The translations under genes and the position numbers were made by a program. Positions 5,578 to 54,526 of a DNA stretch of 64,000 nt are shown piece by piece. Under the pieces are notes generated by a model. It worked only from the letters and a program-made list of their open reading frames with translations. It made no database searches and was not told where the DNA came from. The first letter of the stretch is position 1; each line of letters opens with the position of its first letter. This DNA is from Patescibacteria group bacterium (lineage in GTDB: Bacteria; Patescibacteriota; Microgenomatia; JAMCZE01), in contig JAMCRP010000001.1 of NCBI GenBank assembly GCA_023380635.1, positions 22,613 through 86,612 of the forward strand, read 5' to 3'.

Positions 5578-5662
5578 TGGCGCGGGAGGGAGTCGAACCC
5601 TCACAGCCTATTATGGCTACCAGTTTTTGAGACTGGCTTGTCTACCATTCCAACACCGCGCC
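5578..5662 (-). tRNA. tRNA-Leu (anticodon CAA), type II tRNA with long variable arm; CCA not encoded
   Basis: Reverse complement GGCGCGGTGTTGGAATGGTAGACAAGCCAGTCTCAAAAACTGGTAGCCATAATAGGCTGTGAGGGTTCGACTCCCTCCCGCGCCA. 7-bp acceptor stem GGCGCGG/CCGCGCC. Anticodon stem CCAGT/ACTGG with loop CTCAAAA. T-arm GAGGG-TTCGACT-CCCTC. Confidence 0.8.
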
Positions 5663-5725
5663 AAGTATACCTAATTATAGCATTCTTATAGTCTCTCTCT
5701 AACATATAAATCCTATCATTCGAGC

Positions 5726-33761: not shown

Positions 33762-33807
33762 TAATTCAGATTAGCCTTTTTACTCCCCGGCCGTCAAGAG
33801 GATTTAT

Positions 33808-37243: not shown

Positions 37244-37244
37244 A

Positions 37245-38312: not shown

Positions 38313-38320
38313 AGCCTACT

Positions 38321-39532
38321 ATGAAACAGTTCACCTATCGCATTCGCAAGCCTGACGGGGTGATTGCTACCGGGGTAATTGAAAGCGTTTCTCCGCAGAC
38401 AGCAGCCCGGACTCTTCAGGAGCGTAAATACCTGGTCTTAAACATCGCCGAAAAACGCAGCTGGGATATAAATAGTATTCTGGGCAGTTTTGGCCAAAAA
38501 GCCTCTTCCCGGGAAATCGCCCAGTTTACCCGGCTGCTGGCAACAATGCTTTCGACCGGATTACCGCTGACCGACGCTCTTTCCAATCTGGTAAGCCAGG
38601 CAAAAAACGGCTATTTTCGGGAAGTACTGCAGACAATCATGCATGATGTCCAGGGGGGCGTGGCTCTTTCCGAAGCCATGAACCGTCACCCCAAGGTCTT
38701 TAATGATCTTTATGTCAATCTGGTGAAAGCCGGCGAAGCTTCGGGAAAGGTTGATGAGGCTCTGGCCAAACTGGCGGACACCCTTGAATCCAATCTGGAT
38801 TTTCAGTCCAAGGTTAAAGGGGCCATGATCTACCCGGCAGTGGTGACGGTCGCCATGACCGGCATTGGCTTCTTTATGATCACCAATATCATCCCCCAAA
38901 TCGCTAATGTTTATAAAGAATTCGGGGCCGACTTGCCTCTTCCCACCCGGATTCTGATCGGGATTGCAAATTTTATTACCAATTACACTATTATCGTTGC
39001 CGCGATAATCGGCCTGATTTACTACACTTTCCGGACCCTGAAGAAAAATCCTTCCAGCGAATATTTGATTAACAATTTCTTTTTTAAAATCCCGATTTTC
39101 GGGCCGTTGTCCTGGGAAGTCAATTTGGCGGTGGTCTGCCGGACTTTGGGCACTCTTCTGGCTTCGGGAGTCGCTATTTTAGATGCTTTGCGGATTGTTT
39201 CCAAAACCGTCGGGAATAATTCCTTGCGTTCCGGACTGGTCGAGGCGGCAGCGATGGTGGAAAAAGGCTTGCCTCTTTCTTTGGCTTTGCGGCGCAACGA
39301 AAATTTTCCCATTATGATGTCGCAGCTGATTGCCATCGGCGAAGAAACCGGTACTCTGGATAAAAGTCTGGAGAGGCTCTCAAAATTTTACCAGGACTCG
39401 GCTGAGGTGAAAGTAAAGGCTCTCACGACTCTTCTTGAACCGATAATGATTCTTTTAATGGGCGGCATGGTGGCCGGGTTGGCTCTTGCCGTCTTGTTGC
39501 CAATGTTTAATCTTGTTAATGTTATTAAATAA
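38321..39532 (+). CDS. pilC: Type IV pilus inner-membrane platform protein PilC (GspF family)
   Basis: Two GspF repeats each with a TM segment, conserved LLEPIMILLMGGMVAGLA C-terminus; 403 aa. Confidence 0.9.
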   Translation: MKQFTYRIRKPDGVIATGVIESVSPQTAARTLQERKYLVLNIAEKRSWDINSILGSFGQKASSREIAQFTRLLATMLSTGLPLTDALSNLVSQAKNGYFREVLQTIMHDVQGGVALSEAMNRHPKVFNDLYVNLVKAGEASGKVDEALAKLADTLESNLDFQSKVKGAMIYPAVVTVAMTGIGFFMITNIIPQIANVYKEFGADLPLPTRILIGIANFITNYTIIVAAIIGLIYYTFRTLKKNPSSEYLINNFFFKIPIFGPLSWEVNLAVVCRTLGTLLASGVAILDALRIVSKTVGNNSLRSGLVEAAAMVEKGLPLSLALRRNENFPIMMSQLIAIGEETGTLDKSLERLSKFYQDSAEVKVKALTTLLEPIMILLMGGMVAGLALAVLLPMFNLVNVIK

Positions 39533-39545
39533 AGGAGGTGAAATT

Positions 39546-40025
39546 ATGAAGCAAAGAGGTTTTACTTTAATTGAACTCATGGTAGTAATCTCGGTAATTG
39601 CGATTCTTTCGACGATTGCCCTGTTTGGTTTAAATAAAGCTCAGGCCAGTGCCAGGGATTCTTCCCGGCAACAGATTATGAATGGGATAAGAACTGCTCT
39701 GGAGAGATATTACGGTGACAACCAATTTTATCCGGGACCAGGGGGTGTCGGATATCAATGGAGCGGGGCCTCCGATAGCCCAATAGACACGCTGGTTACA
39801 GGAAAATACCTGGTAATCCCTCCGAAGGATCCTTGTAAAAACGGCACTACAATTCCGAGCACGGGAACGATGGGCGCTTCAGACTGCGCCCCGACAGCTT
39901 ACGCCTATACAGCCACGCAGGCAGACGGAAGCGCGTGTACCACCGCGGATAAAAACTGCACTAAATATACTTTGACTTTAACAAAAGAGGCCGGAGGGAC
40001 CAGCATATTTGTTAGTCCGCAATAA
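39546..40025 (+). CDS. Type IV pilin (prepilin, class III signal) paralog 1
   Basis: MKQRGFTLIELMVVISVIAIL: leader ending in G, then FTLIE with Glu+5. RBS aggagg 8 nt upstream. Track ORF starts earlier at 39486 but the Met at 39546 fits the prepilin leader. Confidence 0.8.
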   Translation: MKQRGFTLIELMVVISVIAILSTIALFGLNKAQASARDSSRQQIMNGIRTALERYYGDNQFYPGPGGVGYQWSGASDSPIDTLVTGKYLVIPPKDPCKNGTTIPSTGTMGASDCAPTAYAYTATQADGSACTTADKNCTKYTLTLTKEAGGTSIFVSPQ

Positions 40026-40028
40026 AGC

Positions 40029-40448
40029 GTGAGGAGAGGGTTTAGTTTAATCGAGATAATGATTGTAGTAGCAGTCGTGGCTCTCTTGGCCACGATTGCC
40101 TTGTTTTCTTTCCGGATCGTCTTGGCTCAGAGTCGGGATGCCAAACGGGCGGCCATCATGCATGATCTGCAGTTCGCCCAGGAACTTTACAAAATCCGCA
40201 ACGAGGAGTATTACTCGACGATTAACACTTTCTGCGGAGTTTACACAGCCTTGGTTAGCGGCAACTATATTACCTATACCCCGGTTGACCCCGGGACCCA
40301 ATCCCCGATCTGCTCTTCAGCCGATGGCGGTAATCCCTTAATCGACAACGCCCTTTATTATTATGTAGCGACGCCGTCTTCGGGAACCTACCTGTTGAAA
40401 TTAGGCAAAGAAGCTGGCGGTTCTGGGGACTTTTTCAGCCCGCAATGA
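40029..40448 (+). CDS. Type IV pilin paralog 2
   Basis: GTG start; [28 protein letters not shown] prepilin N-terminus; 139 aa. Confidence 0.75.
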   Translation: MRRGFSLIEIMIVVAVVALLATIALFSFRIVLAQSRDAKRAAIMHDLQFAQELYKIRNEEYYSTINTFCGVYTALVSGNYITYTPVDPGTQSPICSSADGGNPLIDNALYYYVATPSSGTYLLKLGKEAGGSGDFFSPQ

Positions 40449-40858
40449 AAAAGGGTTTTACCTTGGTTGAATTAATGGTGGTAATTGTGGTGATTTCGAT
40501 TTTAGCCACAATCGGGGTTGTCTCCTTTACCCGGGTTCAGAAGCAGGCCCGGGACAGCAAGAGAAAATCGGAACTGACGGCAATCCAGACGGCCCTTCTG
40601 GCTTTTTTTACCGAAAGAAGAGCCTATCCCGACGGGCTTTCCGAACTTGTCCCGGATTATATTTCCAGTGTGCCGGCAGCGCCGAAAGGAGCGACAGGCA
40701 CCAATCTTGACTACACCTATGTTGTTGACAGCACCCATTTCAAGTATGCCCTGTGCGTTGACCTGGAAACGGCCGGGGCCGGCATGATGCTGAAGGTCGA
40801 CACCCATAACACTACGGGCCGGGAGATGCCCGACGCGCCCTGTGAAATCGATTTTTAG
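40445..40858 (+). CDS. Type IV pilin paralog 3
   Basis: MKKGFTLVELMVVIVVISILATIGVVSF; C-terminal disulfide loop C...C; 137 aa. Confidence 0.8.
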   Translation: MKKGFTLVELMVVIVVISILATIGVVSFTRVQKQARDSKRKSELTAIQTALLAFFTERRAYPDGLSELVPDYISSVPAAPKGATGTNLDYTYVVDSTHFKYALCVDLETAGAGMMLKVDTHNTTGREMPDAPCEIDF

Positions 40859-40868
40859 GGTACGGCCC

Positions 40869-40946
40869 TTGACAAGCGGATTTTTTTATTTCACTATGAA
40901 TACATAGTGGAAAACCTAAAGCCGCCCTCACTAAGGTTATGGCGGC
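40869..40946 (+). promoter_or_regulatory. Candidate promoter (TTGACA ... TATGAAT) plus two hairpins in the leader of pilin paralog 4
   Basis: TTGACA at 40869-40874, TATGAA at 40895-40900 (spacing ~20 bp). Palindrome cactatg-aata-catagtg (40892-40909). gccgcc-N14-ggcggc (40921-40946). Followed by GGGGGG RBS and ATG 40963. Confidence 0.35.
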
Positions 40947-40962
40947 CGAAGGGGGGTGAATC

Positions 40963-41439
40963 ATGATTAAACTGCCTAATAAAAGTAAAAAAGGTTTCAC
41001 CCTGGTCGAGTTGATGATCGTTATCACGGTTATCGCCATTCTGGCAACGATTGCGGTAGTGTCTTTCACCCGGGTGCAGAAACAGGCGCGGGATACGAAG
41101 AGGAAGGCAGAAGTGAAGTCTCTTCAGACTGCCCTTCAAGCTTATTACACCGAGCATCAGGCCTACCCGATTTCAACGACGGCAATTACAACTGAGGACG
41201 TGAATACCGTGTTAACAGGACTATCTCCGGACTATATGTCGTCTTTGCCGATTGCTCCTTTGGGGTCAACGGGTAACTATCAAAAATACACTTACATCAC
41301 GACCGATGACGGGTTTAGATACGCTATTTGTGTGGACCTAGAGACGGCGGCTGTCGGACAAGAACTTTGGGTTGTAAATACCCAAAATTCAGCCGGTGAA
41401 GGTATTGCTGACGCTGCTGGTGCTTGTGTACCCAAGTAA
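40963..41439 (+). CDS. Type IV pilin paralog 4 (likely the major pilin: own promoter-like region and strong terminator)
   Basis: MIKLPNKSKKGFTLVELMIVITVIAILATIAVVSF; ~70 percent nt identity to paralog 3 over the N-terminal half; C-terminal Cys pair; 158 aa. Confidence 0.8.
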   Translation: MIKLPNKSKKGFTLVELMIVITVIAILATIAVVSFTRVQKQARDTKRKAEVKSLQTALQAYYTEHQAYPISTTAITTEDVNTVLTGLSPDYMSSLPIAPLGSTGNYQKYTYITTDDGFRYAICVDLETAAVGQELWVVNTQNSAGEGIADAAGACVPK

Positions 41440-41441
41440 TT

Positions 41442-41497
41442 CTTTACTCGCGCGAGTAAAGAAGCAAAAAACCCTGCCCTAACCGGTGGGGTTTTTG
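41442..41497 (+). terminator. Rho-independent terminator(s) after the pilin array
   Basis: Perfect palindrome tttactcgcgcgagtaaa (41443-41460), then aaaaaccctgcc-ctaacc-ggtggggttttt (A-tract, 12-bp stem with two G-U pairs, T-tract), likely bidirectional. Confidence 0.6.
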
Positions 41498-41510
41498 GTA
41501 GTATTAGACC

Positions 41511-42281
41511 ATGAGAGAAATAGGAGAAATTGGGTTGATTGGGATATTTGGATTAATCATCGGCAGTTTTCTCAATGTCCTAATCTGGCGGCTAAATGAC
41601 CCGAAAGCGCCGAAATTTTGGCAGGGGCGAAGCATCTGTCCTCAGTGCAAACACCAGATCGCCTGGTTTGACAACCTTCCCCTGCTCTCCTATCTGCTGC
41701 TGCGAGGTCGTTGCCGCTCCTGCAAAAAGCCGATTAGTTGGCAATATCCCCTGGTCGAATTTTTGACAGGGATTTTTTTTGTTTTGGCGTGGGTTTTGAC
41801 GCCCGGATTGGGGATATTGGGGAAATTGGGGGTGTTGGGTATCGCTGCAGCTCTGGAAGTAATTTTCTTTTCCGATTTAATTTATGGCTTTATCCCCGAT
41901 GAAATGCTTTTGGTCATTGGAATTTTAAAATTGATTGAAAATTGGAAATTGAAAAATGAAAATTGGGGCTTAGATTTTCTAGCAGGATTAATTGCCATGC
42001 TATTGTTCTACCTAATTTATAAAATAACCAAAGAACGCGGCTTGGGTTTTGGGGATGTTAAATTTGCTTTTCTGATGGGCTTTCTACTCGGTTGGCCGAA
42101 AATTGCTGTGGGTTTGTGGGTGGCTTTTGTCTCTGGCGGTCTGGTGGCGATAATTTTATTGGCGTTGCGCCGGACAAAACTTTCTGCCACAATGGCTCTA
42201 GGGCCATTTTTGGTAATTGGCACTTTCTTTGCTGCCCTATGGACAAATACCGTTCTTACCATTCTCGGGCTTACACCCTGA
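41511..42281 (+). CDS. pilD: Prepilin peptidase PilD (A24 family, with N-terminal zinc-finger)
   Basis: CPQCKHQIAWFDNLPLLSYLLLRGRCRSCKKPI tetracysteine motif, GFGDVKF catalytic Asp region, 7-8 TM; 256 aa. Confidence 0.85.
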   Translation: MREIGEIGLIGIFGLIIGSFLNVLIWRLNDPKAPKFWQGRSICPQCKHQIAWFDNLPLLSYLLLRGRCRSCKKPISWQYPLVEFLTGIFFVLAWVLTPGLGILGKLGVLGIAAALEVIFFSDLIYGFIPDEMLLVIGILKLIENWKLKNENWGLDFLAGLIAMLLFYLIYKITKERGLGFGDVKFAFLMGFLLGWPKIAVGLWVAFVSGGLVAIILLALRRTKLSATMALGPFLVIGTFFAALWTNTVLTILGLTP

Positions 42282-42805
42282 TCGAACTGCTGATCTCTTT
42301 AGCCATCATGGCCATAATCGGGGTGCTGGCTTTTTACGGCATTCAAGATTTCAATGTTAACCAGGCGGTGTCCGATGCTCAGCATAACTTTATTTCTGAT
42401 CTGCGGGCCACGCAAAACCAGGCGGCTCTCGGAGCAGACGGAGTCAATTTTAAGACGGTGTGGGTAAACACCGGTTCTCCGGATCAGTACACGATTTCTT
42501 ATACCGTTCCTCTTTCAAATAATCTGGTTTCTGTAACTAAAATACTCCCGACCGGAGTCACGGTTTCGGCTCCCAATCCGGCAAATTTTACGGTTTGTTT
42601 GGCCAACCCCAAGCTGACCGGATATACCACCGGACAATGCGGCAACTGTGCCGTAGCTGGTTCAGAAGCGTTTTTTGCTTGCAACAACGGGACGAAAGTT
42701 GATAGTAACTATCTGGATGTGACCTTCTCCCGGGGCTCGGTTTCCAAAACTGTCCGCATCGAAGGCAATGGTATGGATATCAGCAGAATATATGCGCTCG
42801 ACTAG
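42239..42805 (+). CDS. Minor pilin / pseudopilin with atypical prepilin cleavage site (…SRA|YTLIELL)
   Basis: Track ORF begins at 42092 inside pilD. First in-frame ATG after that is 42239 (MDKYRSYHSRAYTLIELLISLAIMAIIG). Hydrophobic prepilin-type N-terminus with Glu at +5; 188 aa from this start. Confidence 0.5.
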   Translation: MDKYRSYHSRAYTLIELLISLAIMAIIGVLAFYGIQDFNVNQAVSDAQHNFISDLRATQNQAALGADGVNFKTVWVNTGSPDQYTISYTVPLSNNLVSVTKILPTGVTVSAPNPANFTVCLANPKLTGYTTGQCGNCAVAGSEAFFACNNGTKVDSNYLDVTFSRGSVSKTVRIEGNGMDISRIYALD

Positions 42806-43238
42806 AGGCATGACCCTTATCGAAACCATCCTCGCCCTTTTAGTGCTGGCGGCCGTGACTTCGGCGGTAATCCTGCTTTTGACCCAGATTATGGCCCTAA
42901 CCACTTCCGCCCGGCTGCGAAATACCGCTACAGCGATGGCGGAACAAAACCTGGAGAAAATCAGGAGCTTTTATCAGGTTAATTTTTGGATGAATCTGGC
43001 TAACAAAGGCTCTTCCGGCGGAACCTGCTATATTGATACTGCCGGAATTTTAAATTTAGACACCGGAGCGACTTGTGTGACGGATTGCAGCAGTTTGGGC
43101 AGCAACGGTTTTCGCCAAAATGTAAAGTTGACGACCGATTCTGGCCTTAGCCGGGTTCAGGTCGATTCGTCGGTCTGGTGGCAGGACAAGGGGGCTTGTC
43201 AGCACCTTACCTCCACGACTTATTATTTTAATTACTGA
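42792..43238 (+). CDS. Minor pilin / pseudopilin
   Basis: MRSTRGMTLIETILALLVLAAVTSAVILL: leader ending in G, Met+1, Glu+5; start at the internal Met of the track ORF 42768-43238. Confidence 0.55.
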   Translation: MRSTRGMTLIETILALLVLAAVTSAVILLLTQIMALTTSARLRNTATAMAEQNLEKIRSFYQVNFWMNLANKGSSGGTCYIDTAGILNLDTGATCVTDCSSLGSNGFRQNVKLTTDSGLSRVQVDSSVWWQDKGACQHLTSTTYYFNY

Positions 43239-43798
43239 TGCGTAAGGGCTTTACTCTGATCGAAATTATTGTCGTTATCGCCGTTTTCGGCGTTTTAATG
43301 CTAGCCGGAACAAGTTTTTTAATATCAGTTATCCGTAATGCCAATCAGGTGCGGATTCAAAACGATGTCCGCCAGACGGCCAGTCAAATTATGGAAGACA
43401 TTGCTTCGGAAATGCGTTCGGCGACAGATGTCACTTTCTCGTCCGGCTTAACGCAGAATGTTTTGACTATCACTAATACCACGATTGTGCCAAGCAGAAC
43501 AGTGGTATATACAGCTTATAATACCGGGAAACTGACGAAAACAGTTAATAGCGGAGCGCCGTTGGATTTTACTTCGGATAATAATGACACCACTTCTCAA
43601 AGCGAGGCGGTTGTTTTGGATACTTCTGCTGTTTCCTGTGATGACAGCCTTCATGCGGCCAAGGGTCTGCAGGTGGTTGTGGGGACTAACCTGGCTACTG
43701 ATATTACCCTGACTCTTCAGCAGGCAACGAAATATGTCACTCCCGATTTTTGTGCCCGAATCCAGCTTAAAAATACCCTGGTGCCAAGACGGTACTAG
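43238..43798 (+). CDS. Minor pilin (GspJ/PilW-like)
   Basis: MRKGFTLIEIIVVIAVFGVLMLAGTSF prepilin N-terminus; 186 aa. Confidence 0.65.
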   Translation: MRKGFTLIEIIVVIAVFGVLMLAGTSFLISVIRNANQVRIQNDVRQTASQIMEDIASEMRSATDVTFSSGLTQNVLTITNTTIVPSRTVVYTAYNTGKLTKTVNSGAPLDFTSDNNDTTSQSEAVVLDTSAVSCDDSLHAAKGLQVVVGTNLATDITLTLQQATKYVTPDFCARIQLKNTLVPRRY

Positions 43799-43834
43799 AC
43801 GATGCGGCAAATTTTACGCTATCATGTACTTAAG

Positions 43835-44698
43835 ATGATAAAAACCAGGCGCGGGCAGGTGATGGTTTTAGTCCTCCTTTTGTCCCTGATGGGACTGACA
43901 GTCGGTTTGGCCACCGCTTCCAGGTCGCTGTCCGATTTAAAACAGATCTCTTATGTTGATCAGGGCACCAAAGCTTTTGCCGGAGCGGAAGCCGGGTTGG
44001 AATATGTTTTAAACATGTTGGGCAATGTGTCGACTCTTGACCCGACTTGGTGTACGAGCGACCAATCGATCTCCTCTACTGACTTGAGTATTACCGGGGT
44101 TAAAAGCCTGACTTATCGGGTTTGTTCCCACACCGCTAATCAGACAATTTATCCCAACTTGGCCAAGGATAATGTAATGCAAATCAATTACAACAATGTT
44201 AGCAACACAAAACTTTTTACGATTTTTTGGAAATCACCGGCGGCAATTGAGGCAATTCGGGTGGATAAATCGAACCTTATTACCCGGTATGCTTATAACC
44301 CTTATAATCCTACGGGGAGCATAGTGGCTAATAATCTGCTGAGTTCTTATTCGACCGGTGATGTCATTAACTGTCCGTCGAGTTGTCTAAATGGAGTTCC
44401 GGATTCCGGAAGCTACACCAGTTGCAGCGGCGGTTCTAACAGTTCAAATGCTATTCCCTATGTGCCTAACGACCAGTTTCTGCGGATAAAAGCGCTTTAT
44501 TCATCGACCCCGGTGGTTATTTGTGCGGTTAATTCGGGAAACAGCGCGGTGAATATGCCTGAGGCTTATACCGTTATCACCATGACGGCCACAACGGATA
44601 ACGGTACGGTTAAAAGACTGCAGGTGACAAAGTTGCCTCCGGCTCTTCCTTCCATTTTTGATTACGCGATTTATTCCGGCGGACAAATAGCCAAGTAA
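43835..44698 (+). CDS. PilX-like pilus assembly protein (PilX N-terminal domain)
   Basis: MIKTRRGQVMVLVLLLSLMGLTVGLATASRSLSDL resembles the PilX_N consensus (RGxALVxVLLLLxxLTLLGLAAxRSS); 287 aa from the Met at 43835 (track ORF starts at 43802). Confidence 0.5.
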   Translation: MIKTRRGQVMVLVLLLSLMGLTVGLATASRSLSDLKQISYVDQGTKAFAGAEAGLEYVLNMLGNVSTLDPTWCTSDQSISSTDLSITGVKSLTYRVCSHTANQTIYPNLAKDNVMQINYNNVSNTKLFTIFWKSPAAIEAIRVDKSNLITRYAYNPYNPTGSIVANNLLSSYSTGDVINCPSSCLNGVPDSGSYTSCSGGSNSSNAIPYVPNDQFLRIKALYSSTPVVICAVNSGNSAVNMPEAYTVITMTATTDNGTVKRLQVTKLPPALPSIFDYAIYSGGQIAK

Positions 44699-44713
44699 CA
44701 GTTATTCCTGCCC

Positions 44714-45751
44714 ATGAAATTTCAATCTCATATCGGTTTAGACATTGGTTCTCAGGGGATTAAACTGGTCCAGCTTTCAGTTTCCGGCCCGGATAAATTT
44801 TCTCTTTCAGCCATTGGCCAGATTAACACCCCGCCGGTTGGCGCCAATCAGGTGGAAGCCAATGAAGCTAAAGTCGAGACAATCAAAAAGCTTTTGCACG
44901 ATAGCCACGCCGGGAGTCGTCAGGCAGTCATCTCTCTTCCCGAATCCCAAGTTTATACCCGGGTAATCGAAATGCCAAGAATGTCGGAAGCGGAATTGGC
45001 GCAGGCGATTCGCTGGCAGGCGGAGCAGTATATTCCCGTACCCCTGTCCGATGTAGTTTTAAAACACCAACTGCTATCGGGTTCTGACGAGAGTGACAGT
45101 CCGGACGCGAAATGTAATGTCTTATTAATTGCCGCGCCTAATTTACTCTTAAATAGTTATGTCAGCCTTCTTTCCCGGGCCGGCTTGGAAACCGTGGCCA
45201 TCGAAACGGAGATTTTAGCCGTGGCCCGCGCCTTAGTTGGTGCGGACGCTTTTTCCCCCACTTCCCTGCTGGTACACATGGGGGCGGAAACGACAACCCT
45301 GTCAATTATTTCCCGCGGGAATTTGTCGTTAACCCAAAGTATTTCCACCGGCGGCATGGCTATTTCCCGGGCGGTCGCCTCGAGTCTGGGGCTGGAAATT
45401 AATCAGGCGGAAGAATACAAACGCTCTTACGGGATGGACGAAACCAAGCTGGAAGGCAAAGTTGTGACGGCGATCAAACCGATGATTGATTTAGTTCTGG
45501 CAGAGATCAAAAAAGTGCTGGCGTTTTACGAAACCCACGGCTTCAAAGATCCGGTAAAACGGGTGGTACTTTCCGGCGGCACGGCTCTTCTACCCGGCTT
45601 GGTGGGTTATCTGAGCGTTAATCTGGAAGTCGAGGTTCAGGTTGGTAATCCCTTCCTGAGTGTAAATCTTTCTGACAAGCAGCGCCAGGAGCTTGGCGAA
45701 AACGGTCCGCTTTACGCTACTGCTGTCGGACTGGCTCAAAAACAGACATGA
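44714..45751 (+). CDS. pilM: Type IV pilus assembly protein PilM (actin-like ATPase fold)
   Basis: IGLDIGSQGIKLVQL N-terminal motif and FtsA/actin-like fold signatures (LSGGTALLPGL); 345 aa. Confidence 0.8.
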   Translation: MKFQSHIGLDIGSQGIKLVQLSVSGPDKFSLSAIGQINTPPVGANQVEANEAKVETIKKLLHDSHAGSRQAVISLPESQVYTRVIEMPRMSEAELAQAIRWQAEQYIPVPLSDVVLKHQLLSGSDESDSPDAKCNVLLIAAPNLLLNSYVSLLSRAGLETVAIETEILAVARALVGADAFSPTSLLVHMGAETTTLSIISRGNLSLTQSISTGGMAISRAVASSLGLEINQAEEYKRSYGMDETKLEGKVVTAIKPMIDLVLAEIKKVLAFYETHGFKDPVKRVVLSGGTALLPGLVGYLSVNLEVEVQVGNPFLSVNLSDKQRQELGENGPLYATAVGLAQKQT

Positions 45752-46290
45752 TTGATATTAATCTCCTGCCACCGCAAAACGTGCTCTCACAAAAAGAGAA
45801 AATCCTACGAAGTCAACTGACTGTCGCGGCTATTATCGGAGGCGTGGTGACGGCTCTAGTTTTAGGGTCATTAGCTCTGATCAACGCTTACTACTCTGCC
45901 CGCCTGTCAGCGGTCGCGGCCCGACGGACCAGTCTCACGGCGCAGTTTAATGCTGTTCAAAAAACCGCTCTGGATTTGCGCCTGATTAAGGATAAAATAG
46001 CCGGAATTAATTCCATCAAAACTTCCCAGACGCAATTTCCTCCGATTCTGGATGATCTAACAGCCCTGTTTTCCGGAGGTTTTCAGCTAACCCAGCTTTC
46101 TGTTGATCAAACGCAAAAGACCAGCTTTGCCGGAATAACCGCCGGGCCGGAGTCTTTTAACACCCTGCTGGGTCGGATTATTGCCGGTCGGGATGCAAAC
46201 AAGTACGGGCAAATCGAACTTTCCGGCTTACGGGAAAACAAGGACAAGACTTTGAGTTTTTCAATTCAGATGCTTTATGAAAACAAATAA
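45748..46290 (+). CDS. pilN: Type IV pilus assembly protein PilN
   Basis: MIDINLLPP... start typical of PilN, single TM then coiled coil; 4-nt overlap with pilM; 180 aa. Confidence 0.65.
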   Translation: MIDINLLPPQNVLSQKEKILRSQLTVAAIIGGVVTALVLGSLALINAYYSARLSAVAARRTSLTAQFNAVQKTALDLRLIKDKIAGINSIKTSQTQFPPILDDLTALFSGGFQLTQLSVDQTQKTSFAGITAGPESFNTLLGRIIAGRDANKYGQIELSGLRENKDKTLSFSIQMLYENK

Positions 46291-46981
46291 TAGCCTGGAT
46301 TTGAAAAAAATTAGGCCTTATTTTTTCTTCATTTTCCTTTTTGTGGTTTTTGCCGCCGAGCTTGGGGTTCTGGTGATCTTTGCTCCGTCGTTGTATTCGA
46401 CAATTCTTTCGGCCCGGGCGTCTTTGGCCGCACAGACGGCGGAAGTCAACACTCTTTCTGACCTAGTGACAGCTCTTAACCAGACAGACCCCGCTAATTT
46501 AGCGGCTCTGCAAAAGAAAGTGACGGCTGCTTTGCCGGATGAGAAAAAAACTGCCGGGGTGGTGACGGGCTTAACTCGCCTGGCTTCGAGTTCCGGAGTG
46601 GTGGTTAACAGCCTGGAATTTTCCCCGGGACTGATTTCTACCGGTTCAGCAACGGCGGTCGTGACAAATACTTCCGGCGAAATAGTCTTAGGTGGCGGTG
46701 TTAAAGCCATTCCGGCCCAGTTGACGGTTACGGCTGATGTTCCGGCTGTCTCTCGTTTTTTGGCGGACTTGGCCAAATCCAGCCAGATGATCGGGGTAAC
46801 CAGCGTTGAATACACTCATTCCGGTCCCAAGACAAGCACCGCCCTGGGACTTTTACTTTATTTTCAACCGCCAAAAGAAGGGGCCGTTACTCCCAAACAA
46901 GTTCAGCCTTTAACTTCCCAGGAGGTTGGTTTAGCCCAGAGTTTGCCGCAGGAGGATATTTTTACTGTTGCGCCAGAGTAA
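46277..46981 (+). CDS. PilO-like pilus assembly protein
   Basis: Single TM, coiled-coil then beta-rich periplasmic-type domain, positioned after pilN; 234 aa. Confidence 0.5.
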   Translation: MKTNNSLDLKKIRPYFFFIFLFVVFAAELGVLVIFAPSLYSTILSARASLAAQTAEVNTLSDLVTALNQTDPANLAALQKKVTAALPDEKKTAGVVTGLTRLASSSGVVVNSLEFSPGLISTGSATAVVTNTSGEIVLGGGVKAIPAQLTVTADVPAVSRFLADLAKSSQMIGVTSVEYTHSGPKTSTALGLLLYFQPPKEGAVTPKQVQPLTSQEVGLAQSLPQEDIFTVAPE

Positions 46982-47476: not shown

Positions 47477-49453
47477 CTAGTTTTTCAAATTAATATAGCA
47501 GTTAGATGAACAGGAAGGTGAAATGTTACTCCCCACCACTGTACCATAGACATCGCCCCCTTGCACCTGCCACCAGGGGGGCGGTACCACCTGGATATTG
47601 GCCGTGGTGGCTGAGCACTGGGCACCGCCGGGGGTTAAAGTGGCGGTGGCGGTCACGGCGGCTGTTTGGGGGCTAGTCACTTTGACGGCGGAAACGATCG
47701 TGGTCGGGTCAGCGGCGGGGTTATCGATCGTAATCGCGCCGGGGTTGGAAGAGACCCACTGAACGGTTCTTGACTGGATAGGGCCGGTGACCACAATATT
47801 AGCCGTGATACTCCCCTTGCGGTTAAAGTAAAACGGATTGGGAATGGTCGGACTTAGGGTCATAGTGCAGGTGGGGTTAACCACCGTAATGGGGCTGGCA
47901 ACCGGGGTCGTAGCGGTGCAGGTGTTTCCTCCGACATTAAGCGTGGCGGTGACGGTGACGGCCGTGCTGCCGGCGTAATTAGCGTGGATGGTAGCTGGAT
48001 TGGTTGTGGGGGTGGTAATGGTGGCAGCGGCTCCAGAGGTCGGAGTCCAGGAAAAAGTCGCGGCCTGTCCGAGAGGGTTGGTGGTTAAAACGGAAGAAAT
48101 GCTGCGGTCCTGGCCGGTGTAAAAAGTGTCGGACGGATTTAAAACCGGCGGGGTTAAAGTGCAGGTGGGGGCAGCCACGGTGACACAAACAGTGTTGGAA
48201 CAGGTATTGGTTCCGGGAGAAAGCGGGGCTGAGGCCGTAAAGCAGGTTTGGCCCACGGTCGTCGCACTGGCCCGGATAGTTACAGTACTACCAGTCGTCC
48301 CTCCGGTAAAGTCAGCTGAGGTTCCGGAAGTCCGGGTCCAGGTAATCGTTCCCAGCGTACCGCCGCTGGCGGCAAAATTAGCCGTCAAAGTCCCGGTGTT
48401 ACCTAACTGAAAGGGGCTAGGAACATTCGTGGAAATGGTATTGCTAGCGCAAGTGGCCGGAGCCGGAGCGGAAACGGTGATTTGTTTAGCACTGCCGAGG
48501 CCACAATAGCTCCAGCCGGTGGGATACCCAAAAGGGTTACCGGTGCACCGGCCGTAAGACGCGGCGGAGTTCACCCGGTTGTAGCCTTGGCAATAAACCC
48601 AGTAGGTCCCGGGATTTTGGAAAGTAAGTTGGGTGTTAACGGGGTTAGTCAGTTTAAGGCTGGTATTGGTGGTACTGCCGACCGTGCCATAGGGGCCACT
48701 GGCATTGTTAGTGGAAGTGGGGCTGGTCCACAGATCGATCATGGTAGCCCCGTTAGCCGGGGTGTTAGTAAAAGTAACCGGCGTGCCGGTAGTGGCTGTT
48801 GCCGGTCCGGACACGGTGCAGGTGGGGTTACAGTAGACAGGCTGGTTACAGGCATCAGCACAGTTACTGATTTCGTTACAGGAACCAGCCGGAACACAGG
48901 AACCGTCAGCCGGGACCCAAAGACATTGTCCCCAGGCAACATCGCCATATTGCTGTAAAGTGGGGTCGCTGTGGACGGCCCGGGGCGGGCTGCCGGGATT
49001 GTTGTAAATATCCTTACACATGGCTTCAGTCCCCACATTTTCCGGCAAAAGGCAAACCGGGGTCCCGTTTAGGTCCAAGGGGTCGCGCCATTCGTGGTTT
49101 AAATTTGTTCCGGCCGGCGGGCAGGATAGCCCGCTGCAGCCTGCAGAAGGTTGTAAAGTGCATTTTCCGGTACAAACACTGGTGGTCCCGCTGCACATCT
49201 GTTTGGCTTCTGCCGGACTACCACATTGATAAGTTTGTGAATAGTTACACGATTCTCCAGCACTACAACCGTCATGAATAGTGACACTTGAGTTACTGAC
49301 GCTACATGATCCTCCTACGGGACAGACTCCGCCACCACAAGCAAACCAATCATTAGTCATGGTACAGCCCGCAAAGACTTGGTTGTGCAGAAGAGGAAGA
49401 GTAAAAAGAAGTGATAACCAAATAAAAACAAAAATGGCGACTTTTTGCCCCAC
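47477..49453 (-). CDS. Large secreted Cys- and Thr/Ser/Gly-rich surface protein (paralog B of the gene at 31773-33761)
   Basis: 658 aa; N-terminal hydrophobic segment; central 335 aa identical to paralog A; C-terminal third ~80 percent identical including the PPPWWQVQGGDVYGTVVGSNIS terminus. Confidence 0.6.
   Translation of the reverse strand: MGQKVAIFVFIWLSLLFTLPLLHNQVFAGCTMTNDWFACGGGVCPVGGSCSVSNSSVTIHDGCSAGESCNYSQTYQCGSPAEAKQMCSGTTSVCTGKCTLQPSAGCSGLSCPPAGTNLNHEWRDPLDLNGTPVCLLPENVGTEAMCKDIYNNPGSPPRAVHSDPTLQQYGDVAWGQCLWVPADGSCVPAGSCNEISNCADACNQPVYCNPTCTVSGPATATTGTPVTFTNTPANGATMIDLWTSPTSTNNASGPYGTVGSTTNTSLKLTNPVNTQLTFQNPGTYWVYCQGYNRVNSAASYGRCTGNPFGYPTGWSYCGLGSAKQITVSAPAPATCASNTISTNVPSPFQLGNTGTLTANFAASGGTLGTITWTRTSGTSADFTGGTTGSTVTIRASATTVGQTCFTASAPLSPGTNTCSNTVCVTVAAPTCTLTPPVLNPSDTFYTGQDRSISSVLTTNPLGQAATFSWTPTSGAAATITTPTTNPATIHANYAGSTAVTVTATLNVGGNTCTATTPVASPITVVNPTCTMTLSPTIPNPFYFNRKGSITANIVVTGPIQSRTVQWVSSNPGAITIDNPAADPTTIVSAVKVTSPQTAAVTATATLTPGGAQCSATTANIQVVPPPWWQVQGGDVYGTVVGSNISPSCSSNCYINLKN
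48177..49183. repeat. Second copy of the exact ~1007-bp repeat (see 32473-33479)
   Basis: Same evidence as for the first copy. Confidence 0.8.
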
Positions 49454-49495
49454 AATTTTAGAATAGAACCCAGGCTGATGGTTGTCAATTGAGGG

Positions 49496-49813
49496 TTAGT
49501 GGCTAGTATCGTCAGTCCCTGGCTGAATAACGAAGTAGAAATTGTCTGTGGACAGCTCATGGCGGCAACTTGTTTTGACAGAAGCATTGCCATAAAGATC
49601 CTTTGCTGCCCCACTGACAGTTAGTTTTTCTAAATCTGAGCAACTGGAAAAATCAGTTGAGGTTGGGCTGCTAGTCGGCATAGGAGAAACAGATTGCCGA
49701 CCATACTCAACTCCAGCTCGAAGTGTAAAAGGTAAACCAAGAAGTAAGGCGATAAGAATAATATCGCGAACAAACCGCGCATTTTTGTAAGGCCGAAATT
49801 CGGGCGATTTCAT
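49496..49813 (-). CDS. Small membrane/secreted hypothetical protein
   Basis: 105 aa, N-terminal TM (IILIALLLGLPFTL), Ser/Thr-rich; no motif. Confidence 0.35.
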   Translation of the reverse strand: MKSPEFRPYKNARFVRDIILIALLLGLPFTLRAGVEYGRQSVSPMPTSSPTSTDFSSCSDLEKLTVSGAAKDLYGNASVKTSCRHELSTDNFYFVIQPGTDDTSH

Positions 49814-49823
49814 ACCCTATAGT

Positions 49824-51047
49824 TTAATTTGGTTTGGCTGGTTTGTCAAATTCTCCACTAATGTATTTTTGGCATTTCTTCTGAAATAGTTCCAAATATT
49901 CCGGAGCCGCAGCTAAAGATTGATCCTGCATAACTAGTTGTTCGAAATTAGGATCACTTTCACGGCGATCCTGATTATACTTTCTCTCTAATTTTCCATT
50001 GTAGTCGCCATGAACGGCGACGCTGGTAATTAAACGCACGACATCTGTCTCTGGTTCTTTGTCTTGAATCCGGCCAAGGACCAGCAGTAGTTTTGAGTCT
50101 GGTTGGTGGTCAGAAGCCCCGATCGCATTGGCGGCAACAGATCTAATTAGCGTCATTGCTAAATGAATTTCCCGCCCATATTTATCTTCGTGGCCCATAT
50201 TCGCATCGTGTAGTTTGTTCTGATCCAGAAAACTGCTGGATGGCTGAAGAAGACTATGGAGTGGTCCTTCTTCCGTTCCCACATCTACCAAGCTGTTGAT
50301 AGTTTGCGAATAATTTTGTTTGAGCTGTTTTTCGTCAAAGTAAATATCTCCGACAATCCCCGCCGGGATTTTTTCCAGCCAGTTACCATTAAAACCAAGA
50401 ATCTTGTCCCCGCCTGGGAAAAATTGAAAGTAGTCAAAGAATTTTTCCGGTAGATCCGAAGGAATTTGTGGTGTTTTGCCGTCACGAAAATCAGTCGGGT
50501 TAAGTTTGTCAGAGAGAAGTCGGTTAACCGCCCAAAATCCTGGCCAAAGCTCGTTAAACATCTTTTGCAAGGTTTCGTTGGCCTCGATATTGTTATGGTA
50601 AGCCACCAGTTCATTAATAATTGTTTCTCTGTCCAAGTTATTGACGGCGGTTTTGCCATCTAGATTTTTCAGTCGGTTGACGCCGCTTTCGAGCCGTTCC
50701 AAATATAACCGATCTGGGCCGGGTTTGCGGCCAAAAACCACTTGGGCCCTGGATCGGATAGCAGCGAAGGTTTTAGAGTCACTGATTTGTAATTTTTTGG
50801 CATCGTCATCAAGCAGGTCGGGGTTTAGGGGGATTTCGGCCGGCGGAAATAATGATTCTAATTGATCTGCCAATTGGCCTTGAAGACTAATTCCGCCAGC
50901 CGCTACGGCAAGAGTCGACAGGAACATAATACCCATGAATTTTCGTCGGCTCATTGCGGCTGGGCCTAATTCTGGGAGTTTTTCAGGAGGTTCGATCAGT
51001 CCAGTCGAGAAGTTTTGTAGCTCCTGGCTCGAATTACCGTCTGGCAT
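49824..51047 (-). CDS. Hypothetical exported protein with twin-arginine-like signal (SRRKFMGIMFLSTLAVAAGG)
   Basis: 407-aa ORF. Probable true start at the Met at 50954 (MSRRKF...), giving an RR motif followed by a hydrophobic stretch. No catalytic motif recognised. Confidence 0.45.
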   Translation of the reverse strand: MPDGNSSQELQNFSTGLIEPPEKLPELGPAAMSRRKFMGIMFLSTLAVAAGGISLQGQLADQLESLFPPAEIPLNPDLLDDDAKKLQISDSKTFAAIRSRAQVVFGRKPGPDRLYLERLESGVNRLKNLDGKTAVNNLDRETIINELVAYHNNIEANETLQKMFNELWPGFWAVNRLLSDKLNPTDFRDGKTPQIPSDLPEKFFDYFQFFPGGDKILGFNGNWLEKIPAGIVGDIYFDEKQLKQNYSQTINSLVDVGTEEGPLHSLLQPSSSFLDQNKLHDANMGHEDKYGREIHLAMTLIRSVAANAIGASDHQPDSKLLLVLGRIQDKEPETDVVRLITSVAVHGDYNGKLERKYNQDRRESDPNFEQLVMQDQSLAAAPEYLELFQKKCQKYISGEFDKPAKPN

Positions 51048-51132: not shown

Positions 51133-51816
51133 TTACTTTAAGGTCTCAAGAGCAATCCTAGCAGCCTCCTGCTCAGCTTCCTGCTTACTCTTGCCTGTGC
51201 CCCGGGCCAGTTCGCGTCTGCCGGCTTTCACGGCAATGGTAAAGGTTTTGTCATGATCCGGCCCAGTCTCGGAAATCATTTCGTAAGCCGGAGCAACCTT
51301 CTCCTTGTTTTGAATCACTTCCTGAAGCTTGCTCTTGTAGTCATAGATACTACGGTCCGCAGTGAGCTTATCCATTTGGGAAAAGAGGTGTTTTTCCAAA
51401 AAAGTCTTTGCGGCCGGTAAGCCCTGGTCCAAATAAATCGCGCCCAGCACGGCTTCAAAAGTATTGGCCAAAAGAGACAAATTTTCCCGGCCACCGCCGT
51501 GTTCTTCGCCCTTGCTGATTAAAAGGAAATCGCCGTAATGCAGCTCTCTGGCCAGCTTACCCAAAGTTTCCGTGCGGACAATTGCCGAGCGGAGATTGGT
51601 TAATTTTCCTTCCGGATACTTCGGAAATTTCCGATAAAGTTCTGTTGAAGTCAGAACCTGGAGAACGCTGTCGCCCAGAAATTCCAGTCGTTCGTTGGAT
51701 TCCTTAAATTGTGGGTTTTCGTTTAAATATGAACGATGAATCAGAGCGCCTTCAAGCAGAGACTTGTTAGTAAACTTAATACCCAGTATTGTTTCTAGGC
51801 TTGATAAATCTGGCAT
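51133..51816 (-). CDS. rnc: Ribonuclease III
   Basis: RNase III signature ERLEFLGDSVL, catalytic E in FEAVLGAIYLD region, C-terminal dsRBD (GPDHDKTFTIAV...GKSKQEAEQEAA); 227 aa. Confidence 0.9.
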   Translation of the reverse strand: MPDLSSLETILGIKFTNKSLLEGALIHRSYLNENPQFKESNERLEFLGDSVLQVLTSTELYRKFPKYPEGKLTNLRSAIVRTETLGKLARELHYGDFLLISKGEEHGGGRENLSLLANTFEAVLGAIYLDQGLPAAKTFLEKHLFSQMDKLTADRSIYDYKSKLQEVIQNKEKVAPAYEMISETGPDHDKTFTIAVKAGRRELARGTGKSKQEAEQEAARIALETLK

Positions 51817-51821
51817 TCAAA

Positions 51822-52442
51822 TTAGTCCTTGTGGTCTTCAATATAATCAAGAATGTCTCCCACCGTTTTCATTTTATTCCCTTTTTCAAACTCCAGGCCC
51901 AAATCTCTTTCCAGCCTGGCCAAAAGATCGGCAATTTCCAAATCGGTAGCGTTTAGATCCGCACGAAGATCTGCTTCGGGAGTAACATTTTTCTGATCCG
52001 CGCCCAGATTATCAGCAATAATTTTAAGCGTCCGGGCGGGCGAAACCAAAACTTTGCCTAAGGCTCCGTTTACAAATGCCGGAGAATTCTCCCCGCCGAA
52101 TTCTTTCGCCAGTTCCACGGCCTCATCGATAACTACCTTAGACGGTTCCGTCGGAGCCAACAGCAGTTCGTAAACTCCCAGGCGCAAAATCGCCAGATCG
52201 ACGGGATTAATTCTATCAATAGCAAATTCGGGAGCGGCTTCGGAAATGGTCTTATCGATAGAATCAAGGTGTGTCAGGATCTGTTGGGCCAAGTCAGAGT
52301 CCACTTTCTGCGGGTGAAATCCGCGAGCAAAAAGTTCCTGGACGGCTTTCTGGCGTTTAAGATGGCGCGGGTCTAAAGCACTCTTCATGATCTGGCTCCA
52401 CAGAACTTGCAAGCCATGTGAGGAAGTTTGGGTTTTTGGCAT
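51822..52442 (-). CDS. nusB: Transcription antitermination factor NusB fused to a C-terminal acyl-carrier-protein-like domain
   Basis: NusB core (RHLKRQKAVQELFA...AILRLGVYELL...VVIDEAVELAKEFGGENSPAFVNGALGKV). C-terminal 65 aa LRADLNATDLEIADLLARLERDLGLEFEK...TVGDILDYIEDH aligns with ACP ([21 protein letters not shown]...AIDYI), with Thr replacing the phosphopantetheine Ser; 206 aa. Confidence 0.75.
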   Translation of the reverse strand: MPKTQTSSHGLQVLWSQIMKSALDPRHLKRQKAVQELFARGFHPQKVDSDLAQQILTHLDSIDKTISEAAPEFAIDRINPVDLAILRLGVYELLLAPTEPSKVVIDEAVELAKEFGGENSPAFVNGALGKVLVSPARTLKIIADNLGADQKNVTPEADLRADLNATDLEIADLLARLERDLGLEFEKGNKMKTVGDILDYIEDHKD

Positions 52443-52543: not shown

Positions 52544-54526
52544 TTAATTACTGGCGATATTAATTTTACTTTCCTCAAGAAGCTGACGCAAGAGAGGAAA
52601 ATTTTCCAGGTTTAAAGTAACTTTTTGGGCAAGCTGGTTGGTTCTTTCGATTAAATCCAGATCAGAGAAATCGGCGATCCTGAGATCCCAGCGGCCATGC
52701 TGGGCGGTACCGAACCGCTGGCCTGGTCCCCGGAACCGCAGGTCTATTTCCGCCAGCTCCATGCCATTATTAATTTTCTCCAGATTTTTCAGCCGCTTTA
52801 CGGCGTATTCAGATTCGTTTTCCGTAAACAACAGGCAGTAAGATTGTCTATCGGCCCGTCCGACCCGGCCGCGCAGCTGGTGCAGCTGGGCCAATCCAAA
52901 ACGATCGGCAGCTTCAATAACCATAATCGTGGCTGTCGGAATATCAATTCCCACCTCGACAACGGGCGTGGCGACCAGGATGTCCAGTTTTCCCCGGCGA
53001 AAATCCTCCAGCACTTTATCTTTTTCTTTTGGCTTCATCCGGCCATGCAATAACCCCAGTTTAAGGTCAGGAAATACATTTTTCGACAGATAGTCGTATT
53101 CGGTTTTGGCCGATTTGACGGTTTGCAGGGTTTCCGACTCTTCGATTAGCGGGCAAACGATAAACGCCTGGGTTTTTTGTTGTTTGATCCATTCATAGGC
53201 AGCCTTCCGCTTATGTTTGGGGACAACCCAGGTTTTAACCGGCAGCCGGTTTTTGGGCAGCTCGTCAAGGACGGACAAATTCAGATCGCCATACAAAGTC
53301 AGAGCAATTGTCCTGGGAATGGGGGTAGCGGTCATGGTCAGAATGTGAGGATTAATCCCCTTCTCGGCCAATTTGGCCCTTTGAGAAACGCCAAAGCGAT
53401 GTTGTTCGTCAATAACTATCAGGCCTAACTTTTTAAAATTAAGGTCATCAGAGAGCAGAGCGTGGGTGCCGACAATTATCCCTTTGTTTTGATAATCTTT
53501 TTTGCTGCCGGTAGCAATGCCGACATCCATCCCGAGCTTTCTAAGGGTTTCGTAGTGCTGGTTAGCCAAAATTTCCGTCGGGGCCATTAAGGCGGCCTGA
53601 AAACCGTTCAAAGTGGTTGCCAGCATGGCCAGGGCCGCCACAACAGTTTTGCCGGAGCCGACATCACCTTGAAGCAGCCGGTTCATTGGTCTGGCAGACG
53701 CCAGATCCTGGTAAATTTCGTTAACTACTTTTTTCTGAGCGGCGGTCAGTTCAAAAGGCAGCCTGGCAGTAAGAGCTGTCAGGTCTTTTCGCACGCCGAC
53801 AATTTCCAATTTGTTGCCAACTTGTTTTTTTTGAAGTTCGTCCCGGCGGACCTTGGCTTGAACCTGAGCCAACAACAGCTCGTCAAAGGCCAATCGTTTT
53901 TTTGCTTCCTCCGCCTGTTTCAAGTTATCCGGAAAGTGAACTTTGATGATGGCTTCTTGCAGCGGCATCAGTCCGTTTTCCTCCAGGACTACTTTTGGTA
54001 AATACTCATTAATCTTCCCGACTTCTCTGATATTCTCAAGTAAAGTATGAATCTTTCCCCTCAGCCACTTGCTTGATATCCCTTCCGTTTCCGGATAGAC
54101 GGGCACCAGTCGGCCGGTGTGAATCGCTCCTTTGCCGGGGTAAATAACTTCGTACTGCGGAGCCGTCAGCTGGAGTTTATGGTTATTTTTCTCTACTTTG
54201 CCGGAGAGCGAGACATAGTCGTCCTTATGCAAAACCCGGGTCAAAAATCTTTGGTTAAACCACAAGATGTCAAGTGTTCCGGTGTCATCCTGAATTTTTG
54301 CCTGTTGGAGCATGAACCCGTTTTTGGTGTAAACATTTTTAATTTCCAGAATTTTCCCCTGAACTGTTACCGTTTCCCCTTCCTGAAGATTCGCAATTTT
54401 GGAAATAAGCGAAAAGTCTTCATAACGGGAGGGAAGATGGTAGAGAAGATCTCTGGCCGTTCTAATTCCTAACTTTTCCAGCTTTCGGGCGTATGCCGGG
54501 CCAACACCCGGGATCTTGTTGTTCAT
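52544..54526 (-). CDS. recG: ATP-dependent DNA helicase RecG
   Basis: Wedge domain, then SF2 helicase motifs LLQGDVGSGKTVVA (I), IDEQHRFGV (II), TATPIPRT (III), HGRMK, and QLRGRVGR (VI); 660 aa. Confidence 0.9.
   Translation of the reverse strand: MNNKIPGVGPAYARKLEKLGIRTARDLLYHLPSRYEDFSLISKIANLQEGETVTVQGKILEIKNVYTKNGFMLQQAKIQDDTGTLDILWFNQRFLTRVLHKDDYVSLSGKVEKNNHKLQLTAPQYEVIYPGKGAIHTGRLVPVYPETEGISSKWLRGKIHTLLENIREVGKINEYLPKVVLEENGLMPLQEAIIKVHFPDNLKQAEEAKKRLAFDELLLAQVQAKVRRDELQKKQVGNKLEIVGVRKDLTALTARLPFELTAAQKKVVNEIYQDLASARPMNRLLQGDVGSGKTVVAALAMLATTLNGFQAALMAPTEILANQHYETLRKLGMDVGIATGSKKDYQNKGIIVGTHALLSDDLNFKKLGLIVIDEQHRFGVSQRAKLAEKGINPHILTMTATPIPRTIALTLYGDLNLSVLDELPKNRLPVKTWVVPKHKRKAAYEWIKQQKTQAFIVCPLIEESETLQTVKSAKTEYDYLSKNVFPDLKLGLLHGRMKPKEKDKVLEDFRRGKLDILVATPVVEVGIDIPTATIMVIEAADRFGLAQLHQLRGRVGRADRQSYCLLFTENESEYAVKRLKNLEKINNGMELAEIDLRFRGPGQRFGTAQHGRWDLRIADFSDLDLIERTNQLAQKVTLNLENFPLLRQLLEESKINIASN

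Follow-up and report, generated by a model that had tools for sequence, protein, structure and literature searches.

A Microgenomatia NusB protein with a C-terminal acyl carrier protein fold that lacks the phosphopantetheine serine

We analyzed a 64,000-nucleotide stretch of genomic DNA, hereafter the window, from a Patescibacteria group bacterium of the Microgenomatia (assembly GCA_023380635.1, contig JAMCRP010000001.1) and focused on a minus-strand gene whose product joins the transcription factor NusB to a domain resembling acyl carrier protein (ACP). This protein is a genuine fusion of NusB with a complete ACP fold, recognized far beyond chance, confirming the NusB–ACP fusion that an earlier note on the same DNA had proposed from the letters alone. 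At the position of Ser36, which bears phosphopantetheine in Escherichia coli ACP, the domain carries aspartate. We consider it likely that the domain is a relic of AcpP, orphaned from fatty-acid synthesis (FAS), that no longer acts as a carrier and has been retained as a NusB-associated module.

An identical protein of 188 residues is present in public data, as are in-frame homologues with the same junction (44–73% identity) in about 80 clusters, with Microgenomates, Gottesmanbacteria, Amesbacteria and Daviesbacteria as source names. These homologues also settle the gene model. The minus-strand open reading frame (ORF) extends without interruption over 51822..52442, which the earlier note took as the gene, but all homologue clusters start at the equivalent of its M19 (MKTALDPRH), and the corresponding ATG (52388–52386) overlaps the TGA stop codon of the upstream rpmF (52387–52385) as ATGA. 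The product is, therefore, a protein of 188 amino acids translated from ATG 52388 (51822..52388, minus strand, 188 codons plus stop). The first 18 codons of the ORF (52389..52442), which lie within rpmF in another frame and are missing from the homologues, are almost certainly untranslated. That the fusion is an artefact of a frameshift, an assembly error or two wrongly joined genes could be argued from the fact that its two parts are separate genes in many relatives and that some long-read contigs of the family are full of frameshifts (for example, L088). Against this stand the uninterrupted ORF, the identical protein from an independent data set and the approximately 80 clusters from different samples sharing one in-frame junction, which leave the artefact with a negligible probability.

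The NusB domain comprises residues 1–115 (52044..52388). PF01029 matched the protein with an E value of 1.9e-24 (87 bits versus a cutoff of 23.1) and TIGR01951 with 92.5 bits (cutoff 88.35), while a Foldseek search with the N-terminal part of an AlphaFold2 model returned the NusB structures 1eyv, 1tzt, 3d3c and 3r2c at target TM-scores of 0.66–0.74, with the all-helical NusB fold. Compared with E. coli NusB (~139 amino acids), the 115-residue domain is shortened in the middle of the protein, and its C-terminus is not truncated. The hallmark motifs DLAILRL..YEL, IDEAVELAK.FG and FVNGxL are retained, and the aromatic residue facing E. coli Y18 is an invariant F20. The basic N-terminal residues K2, R8, H9 and R12 are invariant as well, although the domain is acidic overall, with an isoelectric point (pI) of 5.3. 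It is apparently a short, functional NusB. NusB of E. coli, Aquifex and Mycobacterium tuberculosis partners NusE/S10 on BoxA RNA. Unlike all NusB structures matched in the Protein Data Bank (PDB), the window protein has an extra C-terminal domain.

This tail (residues 116–188; 51825..52043) scored 27.8 bits with the PP-binding family PF00550 when searched alone, as the earlier note had recommended, and 25.0 bits within the whole protein (cutoff 20.8). A phmmer search of its 73 residues against the PDB retrieved only ACPs, led by Aquifex AcpP (2ehs, E value 4.4e-11). The alignment to 2ehs covers ACP residues 5–73 of 77 and, hence, the whole fold from helix I to helix IV, so that the ACP likeness originally noticed for helices II–III is real but wider than described. 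The tail is 35–40% identical to bacterial AcpPs. Several NCBIfam ACP models matched with E values down to 2e-15, all under their curated cutoffs, with best scores of 56.4 versus 71 for NF002148 and 45.2 versus 70.45 for TIGR00517. With Foldseek, the C-terminal part of the model matched the ACP structures 5h9h, 8jfh, 4ihf and 2x2b at target TM-scores of 0.8–0.87 and root-mean-square deviations (rmsd) of 0.9–1.6 Å.

Both a MAFFT alignment including E. coli and Bacillus subtilis ACP and pairwise HMMER alignments place DLNATDLE of the window protein opposite DLGADSLD. Asp149 (codon 51942–51944) occupies the Ser36 position and Thr148 faces Asp35 (both codons, 51942..51947); the serine-to-threonine exchange reported previously was, accordingly, a register error of one residue. 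Among the 79 members of the fusion-family alignment, position 149 is mostly aspartate (D58, E6, N5, Q4, S2, P2) and position 148 mostly threonine (T62, S8, G3). Two acidic residues of helix II, E151 and D154, are invariant and align with D38 and E41 of E. coli ACP; E160, which aligns with E47, is present in 77 of the 79 sequences. The most conserved part of the tail is the loop and helix II segment, DLNATDLEIADL..LE. Overall, the tail (pI 4.5, net charge about −7) shows a mean pairwise identity of 47%, compared to 60% for the NusB domain. For dN/dS analysis, synonymous sites would be saturated, as even the closest distinct relative shares only 73% identity. Judged by its conservation, the profile is that of a folded domain under constraint or purifying selection and not of a decaying remnant. 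Relative to AcpP (PF00550/TIGR00517), the domain keeps the complete four-helix fold at an rmsd of ~1 Å and the acidic residues equivalent to D38, E41 and E47; it differs in the aspartate at the serine site, in its scores below the NCBIfam cutoffs, in being fused to NusB and in having no FAS genes nearby.

The module in related Microgenomatia loci

For a view beyond the fused proteins, six-frame ORFs of 82 related loci were scanned with hidden Markov models (HMMs) of both domains and with the L32 and RNase III proteins of the window. The framework proved highly conserved: nusB is followed by rnc in all 82 loci, directly or with the ACP-like module between them, and in 80 of them rpmF immediately precedes nusB. 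The module itself is variable. It is absent from 57 loci, mostly of Levybacteria and similar lineages, forms a separate ORF of 77–89 amino acids directly after nusB in 21 and is fused in frame to nusB in four.

Where the module is a separate gene, it begins at an ATG of its own, which often overlaps the nusB stop codon as ATGA, and is translationally coupled. In L046 (4986-5585), a single stop codon within a shared frame divides nusB from the ACP-like gene, which leaves the pair one point mutation away from a fusion. A frameshifted separate ORF for the tail had been named as evidence that would count against the fusion; it is informative instead, as it describes the state of the module in many relatives. 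Fused and separate states also occur side by side within lineages. Amesbacteria include fused (L004, L020 and L069) and separate (L047 and L053) forms, and in the window's own clade the fusion stands beside the unfused L043. The fused tails of L020 and L069 are degenerate and shortened. A rough neighbor-joining tree of the NusB domain requires at least 12 state changes and distributes fused forms over several branches, which suggests that fusion took place in several branches and was accompanied by many losses.

None of the 21 stand-alone and four fused copies at these loci has serine at the attachment site. Among the 120 best stand-alone homologues, this site is occupied by proline in 107, alanine in 11 and serine and leucine in one each, while an aspartate equivalent to E41 is found in 119. 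Position 148 is G, K, D, T, Q or N in stand-alone relatives. With the serine absent from fused and separate locus copies alike, its loss must predate the fusion and characterize the Microgenomatia family as a whole. Several candidate phyla have kept the module, namely Woese-, Davies-, Ames- and Blackburnbacteria.

Serine-containing fusions and predicted domain packing

Outside the candidate phyla radiation (CPR), an exhaustive HMMER search with the tail, screened with a NusB HMM, revealed fusions of NusB to an ACP whose motif is the canonical DDLNADSLDLVELI. A second search, with one of these fusions, returned at least 50 clusters of 231–296 amino acids that carry both PF01029 and PF00550 (proteins including P0272, P0390 and P0441–P0490), and several bear the JGI label ‘transcription antitermination factor NusB/acyl carrier protein’. 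Of 51 fusions checked, 48 retain DSL and the other three read DTL. These latter proteins, P0488, P0490 and P0494 (273–281 amino acids), contain DDLNADTLEHDEVI, with threonine exactly at the serine site and a divergent helix II, and may represent a second, independent loss of carrier function. P0300, from locus L089, has a NusB part without the FVNG motif and may carry a deletion or error. Locus L088 was set aside as its contig is full of fragmented and frameshifted genes.

The serine-containing fusions are encoded among FAS genes, in the order rpmF–fabD–fabG–asp23–nusB::acp in L084–L086, L091 and L092, yceD–fabD–fabG–nusB::acp–tatAC in L090 and rpmF–plsX–asp23–nusB::acp–rnc, with a large ORF beyond rnc, in L089. 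The FtsK protein encoded on the 1.96 Mb contig of L090 clusters at ≥90% identity with a Tepidiformaceae (Chloroflexota) protein. These fusions share with the window protein the order of NusB followed by ACP, the DLNA that begins the motif and rpmF upstream; in L089, rnc follows directly downstream, as in the window. They differ in having DSL where the window protein has TDL with aspartate at the serine site, and in following fabD–fabG or plsX, whereas no fab genes flank the window gene.

A still-working carrier, with phosphopantetheine attached to Thr148 or a nearby hydroxyl for the transport of acyl or other groups, might be considered in view of the threonine or serine found at position 148 in 70 of 79 fusion-clade sequences, the otherwise near-canonical ACP domain and the three Chloroflexota-type fusions with threonine at the serine site. 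However, Thr148 aligns with Asp35 and not Ser36, and the family as a whole has no conserved hydroxyl residue, with proline or alanine at the serine site of stand-alone copies. As position 148 is not conserved in the wider family, Thr148 was rejected as a shifted attachment site. E. coli ACP with threonine in place of Ser36 (S36T) is not known to be modified. Among the ~60 ORFs scanned in the 64-kb window, we found no match to a Pfam domain for FAS, AcpS or another phosphopantetheinyl transferase and no ACP-dependent enzyme, nor did the window contain a second ACP-like ORF. Furthermore, Patescibacteria are reported to lack fatty-acid biosynthesis (PMC9938205). A working carrier is, on this evidence, extremely improbable. 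With the serine lost, the module would be unable to act as an acyl carrier.

The two kinds of fusion also diverge in predicted architecture. An AlphaFold2 model of the window protein, built on the 79 family members, reached a mean predicted local distance difference test score (pLDDT) of 93, with >85 throughout, and a predicted TM-score (pTM) of 0.87, and recovered both the NusB and the ACP fold. Only Ser-Pro separates the last NusB helix (102–114) from ACP helix I (117–128). As a pTM of 0.87 for domains of 115 and 73 residues requires a confident relative placement, a fixed orientation is predicted, with the ACP-like domain packing rigidly on NusB in the window lineage. P0458, a Chloroflexota-type fusion modelled likewise as a control, gave a pTM of 0.57 and a disordered linker (residues 145–166, pLDDT <50). 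Its two domains are well folded but have no defined orientation to each other, which fits a mobile carrier on a tether. The control shows that AlphaFold does not dock an ACP onto NusB by default. Linkers of the canonical fusions span ~25–40 residues, of which 22 are modelled as disordered in P0458, compared with two in the window protein.

Rigid packing could also mean that the acidic domain autoregulates NusB by covering its basic N-terminal surface, or the surface that binds RNA or S10, as a nucleic-acid or partner mimic until displaced. The low pI and strong negative charge of the tail, the invariant acidic residues of helix II, the invariant K2, R8, H9 and R12 of NusB and the predicted packing itself would all suit such a role. 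On the other hand, the NusB domain is itself acidic and lineages without the module show no compensating change, and we consider autoregulation quite improbable.

Gene neighborhood in the window

The fusion gene is part of a tight, co-directional minus-strand cluster of recG, rpmF, nusB::ACP and rnc. Upstream, rpmF for ribosomal protein L32 (52385..52540; PF01783, E value 1.7e-13) is translationally coupled to nusB through the ATGA overlap and recG (52544..54526; Pfam RecG_wedge, DEAD and Helicase_C) ends 3 nt before rpmF. Downstream, rnc for RNase III (51133..51816; Pfam Ribonucleas_3_3 and dsrm) starts 5 nt past the stop codon of the fusion gene. The same order including recG is found in L001, L002 and L087. 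An Rfam scan of the window detected one tRNA only and no rRNA leader or BoxA context.

Beyond rnc, the window continues with three minus-strand ORFs of 407, 105 and 658 amino acids lacking Pfam matches (47477-51047). At the corresponding place, L001, L002 and L087 have rpsP and a KH-domain gene (khpA), followed by trmD in L001 and L002; the conserved run of ribosomal genes is interrupted or replaced in the window genome. The order recG…rpsP–khpA–trmD also forms part of the comparison with B. subtilis. A complete type IV pilus-like cluster on the plus strand (35492-46981), with two T2SSE ATPases, a PilC-like protein, several prepilin-type N-methylation proteins, a prepilin peptidase and PilM, likewise adjoins the nusB operon in L001, L002 and L087. 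Between this cluster and a DNA polymerase III delta'-like gene lie four successive minus-strand ORFs (755, 238, 662 and 196 amino acids; 28805-34398), again lacking Pfam matches.

Further away, a plus-strand ORF of 343 amino acids (9649-10680) shows an unusual pairing, in which residues 3–188 are a prolipoprotein diacylglyceryl transferase (Lgt) and the C-terminal residues 308–343 a DksA/TraR-type C4 zinc finger. A Rad52/Rad22-family single-strand annealing protein (5726–6172, plus strand) is encoded beside dnaB and a tRNA gene (5578–5662, minus strand); this region (5578-6172) and a tyrosine recombinase gene at 19924–20856 are possible remnants of a mobile element.

Origin and role of the module

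The position of the module is reminiscent of ACP genes in model bacteria. In E. coli, the gene order is rpmF–plsX–fabH–fabD–fabG–acpP, and in B. subtilis the genes acpA–rnc–smc–ftsY form an operon (PMC4838370). We found no paper giving the full B. subtilis order fapR–plsX–fabD–fabG–acpA–rnc, and only acpA–rnc–smc–ftsY could be confirmed. The window module shares with these acpP and acpA genes its place downstream of rpmF and upstream of rnc.

We infer from sequence and gene order that the module descends from acpP. In the scenario that we favor, the acpP of FAS would have stood between nusB and rnc in an ancestor with the arrangement rpmF–(plsX/fabD/fabG)–(asp23)–nusB–acpP–rnc. This order survives in FAS-proficient bacteria, one of which was placed in Chloroflexota (Tepidiformaceae), with an intact DSL motif and an ACP that is often fused through a disordered linker. 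In Microgenomatia, the fab genes and plsX are absent from the cluster, and rpmF–nusB–[ACP-like]–rnc would be what is left of it, with the module in the position of acpP. The module would then have lost its serine, replaced by aspartate in the window clade and by proline or alanine in stand-alone copies, while purifying selection would have maintained it as a small gene whose translation is coupled to that of nusB. Finally, it would have become fused to NusB in several branches and, in the window lineage, is predicted to pack rigidly on it. The alternative suggestion in the earlier note that the tail is a relic of a NusB–ACP gene association following loss of FAS is well supported by the canonical fusions in FAS clusters and the serine-less copies at the same position in Microgenomatia.

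As to function, the module is most likely a permanent accessory domain of NusB, and it may be retained because it acts with NusB. It could stabilize the short CPR NusB, offer the acidic helix II (E151 and D154) as a docking surface or both. The unfused NusB and ACP-like pairs would presumably associate physically as well. The setting would be NusB–S10/BoxA-dependent antitermination of rRNA transcription and ribosome biogenesis, a process served by rpmF, nusB and rnc alike, and the module may have a role in antitermination. An ACP-mimicking interaction module, the other possibility raised in the earlier note, is compatible with the invariant E151 and D154 and the modelled rigid packing, while any specific partner would be much less certain than the general reading.

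Several observations weigh against retention for a function. The NusB proteins of the 57 loci without the module are otherwise very similar (~65% identity), and the absence of the module from these loci implies that it is dispensable and could be heading for loss. Adjacency alone can yield a fusion by loss of a stop codon without any functional link. No surface residue of NusB clearly changes along with the gain or absence of the module, the only differences, at positions 62 and 79, being weak and confounded by phylogeny. The rigid packing is a prediction. Concerning the origin, only one serine-containing locus was placed taxonomically, through its FtsK, and the connection with Chloroflexota relies on shared synteny and domain order in place of a resolved phylogeny.

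The serious rival is a functionless relic, that is, an orphaned acpP that became fused by stop-codon loss and is drifting toward deletion. In addition to the missing modules and the lack of co-varying residues, the degenerate fused tails of L020 and L069 agree with this explanation, as does the mechanical ease of fusion illustrated by the single stop codon in L046. It accounts less well for the 47% mean identity over about 80 clusters, with invariant positions and a pLDDT >85 throughout, or for the persistence of the module across Woese-, Davies-, Ames- and Blackburnbacteria. The separate genes, furthermore, have kept intact starts and their translational coupling to nusB, fusion is found in several branches, and AlphaFold2 docks the domain in the window protein but not in the control P0458. 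We regard a functionless relic as improbable and prefer the reading of a non-carrier AcpP relic retained as a NusB-associated module.

An older connection can also be envisaged, in which NusB and ACP already worked together in the ancestral lineage of Chloroflexota and CPR, with a non-carrier role of ACP in NusB-dependent rRNA transcription or ribosome biogenesis. We regard this idea as rather unlikely. If true, it would explain both the fusion in Chloroflexota and the fact that a serine-less ACP was kept, coupled and repeatedly fused after loss of FAS in CPR. In FAS-proficient members, the acylation state of a tethered holo-ACP could couple the rRNA process to the status of lipid synthesis.

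Non-carrier roles of ACP have parallels elsewhere. Mitochondrial ACP acts in the MALSU1–L0R8F8–mtACP module during assembly of the large mitoribosomal subunit. By analogy, the NusB tail may be another ACP used as a structural module in ribosome biogenesis and not as a carrier, although that complex is eukaryotic-organellar, mediated by an LYR protein and dependent on acyl-phosphopantetheine. Plasmodium has kept a mitochondrial ACP without the phosphopantetheine group after loss of type II FAS; it binds Isd11–Nfs1 in Fe–S cluster synthesis, and the study concludes that protein binding is why it was retained (eLife 2021, PMC8547962). Both this protein and the window tail are ACP folds lacking a modifiable serine in a system without FAS, its absence in our case being based on the literature for the phylum and on the window. 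They differ in that the linked partner is NusB and the role would be a different one; the likeness is one of functional analogy and not of membership, and no LYR-like or Isd11-type partner was seen in the window.

Full-text searches retrieved no paper on a NusB–ACP fusion, on a link between NusB and ACP or on serine-less ACPs in CPR bacteria. The architecture is already present in public databases, where JGI labelled it automatically, and the evolutionary pattern behind it reaches wider than expected. The combination of a canonical ACP on NusB in FAS operons, one of them in a Chloroflexota genome, serine-less copies coupled or fused to NusB in CPR bacteria without FAS, fusion in several branches and predicted structural integration is hard to explain by chance adjacency alone. 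It joins one of the most conserved transcription factors to one of the best-connected bacterial proteins. If nusB::acp encodes the sole AcpP of an organism with the canonical fusion, that organism makes its fatty acids on an ACP joined to a transcription factor. The shared gene-order character rpmF–…–nusB–acp–rnc is also relevant to the relationship proposed between CPR and Chloroflexota. Even if the module were a slowly decaying relic, it would still document how a core metabolic protein was orphaned and absorbed into an adjacent gene during genome reduction. As a retained module of NusB, it would be a bacterial counterpart to the Plasmodium ACP that has outlasted fatty-acid synthesis.

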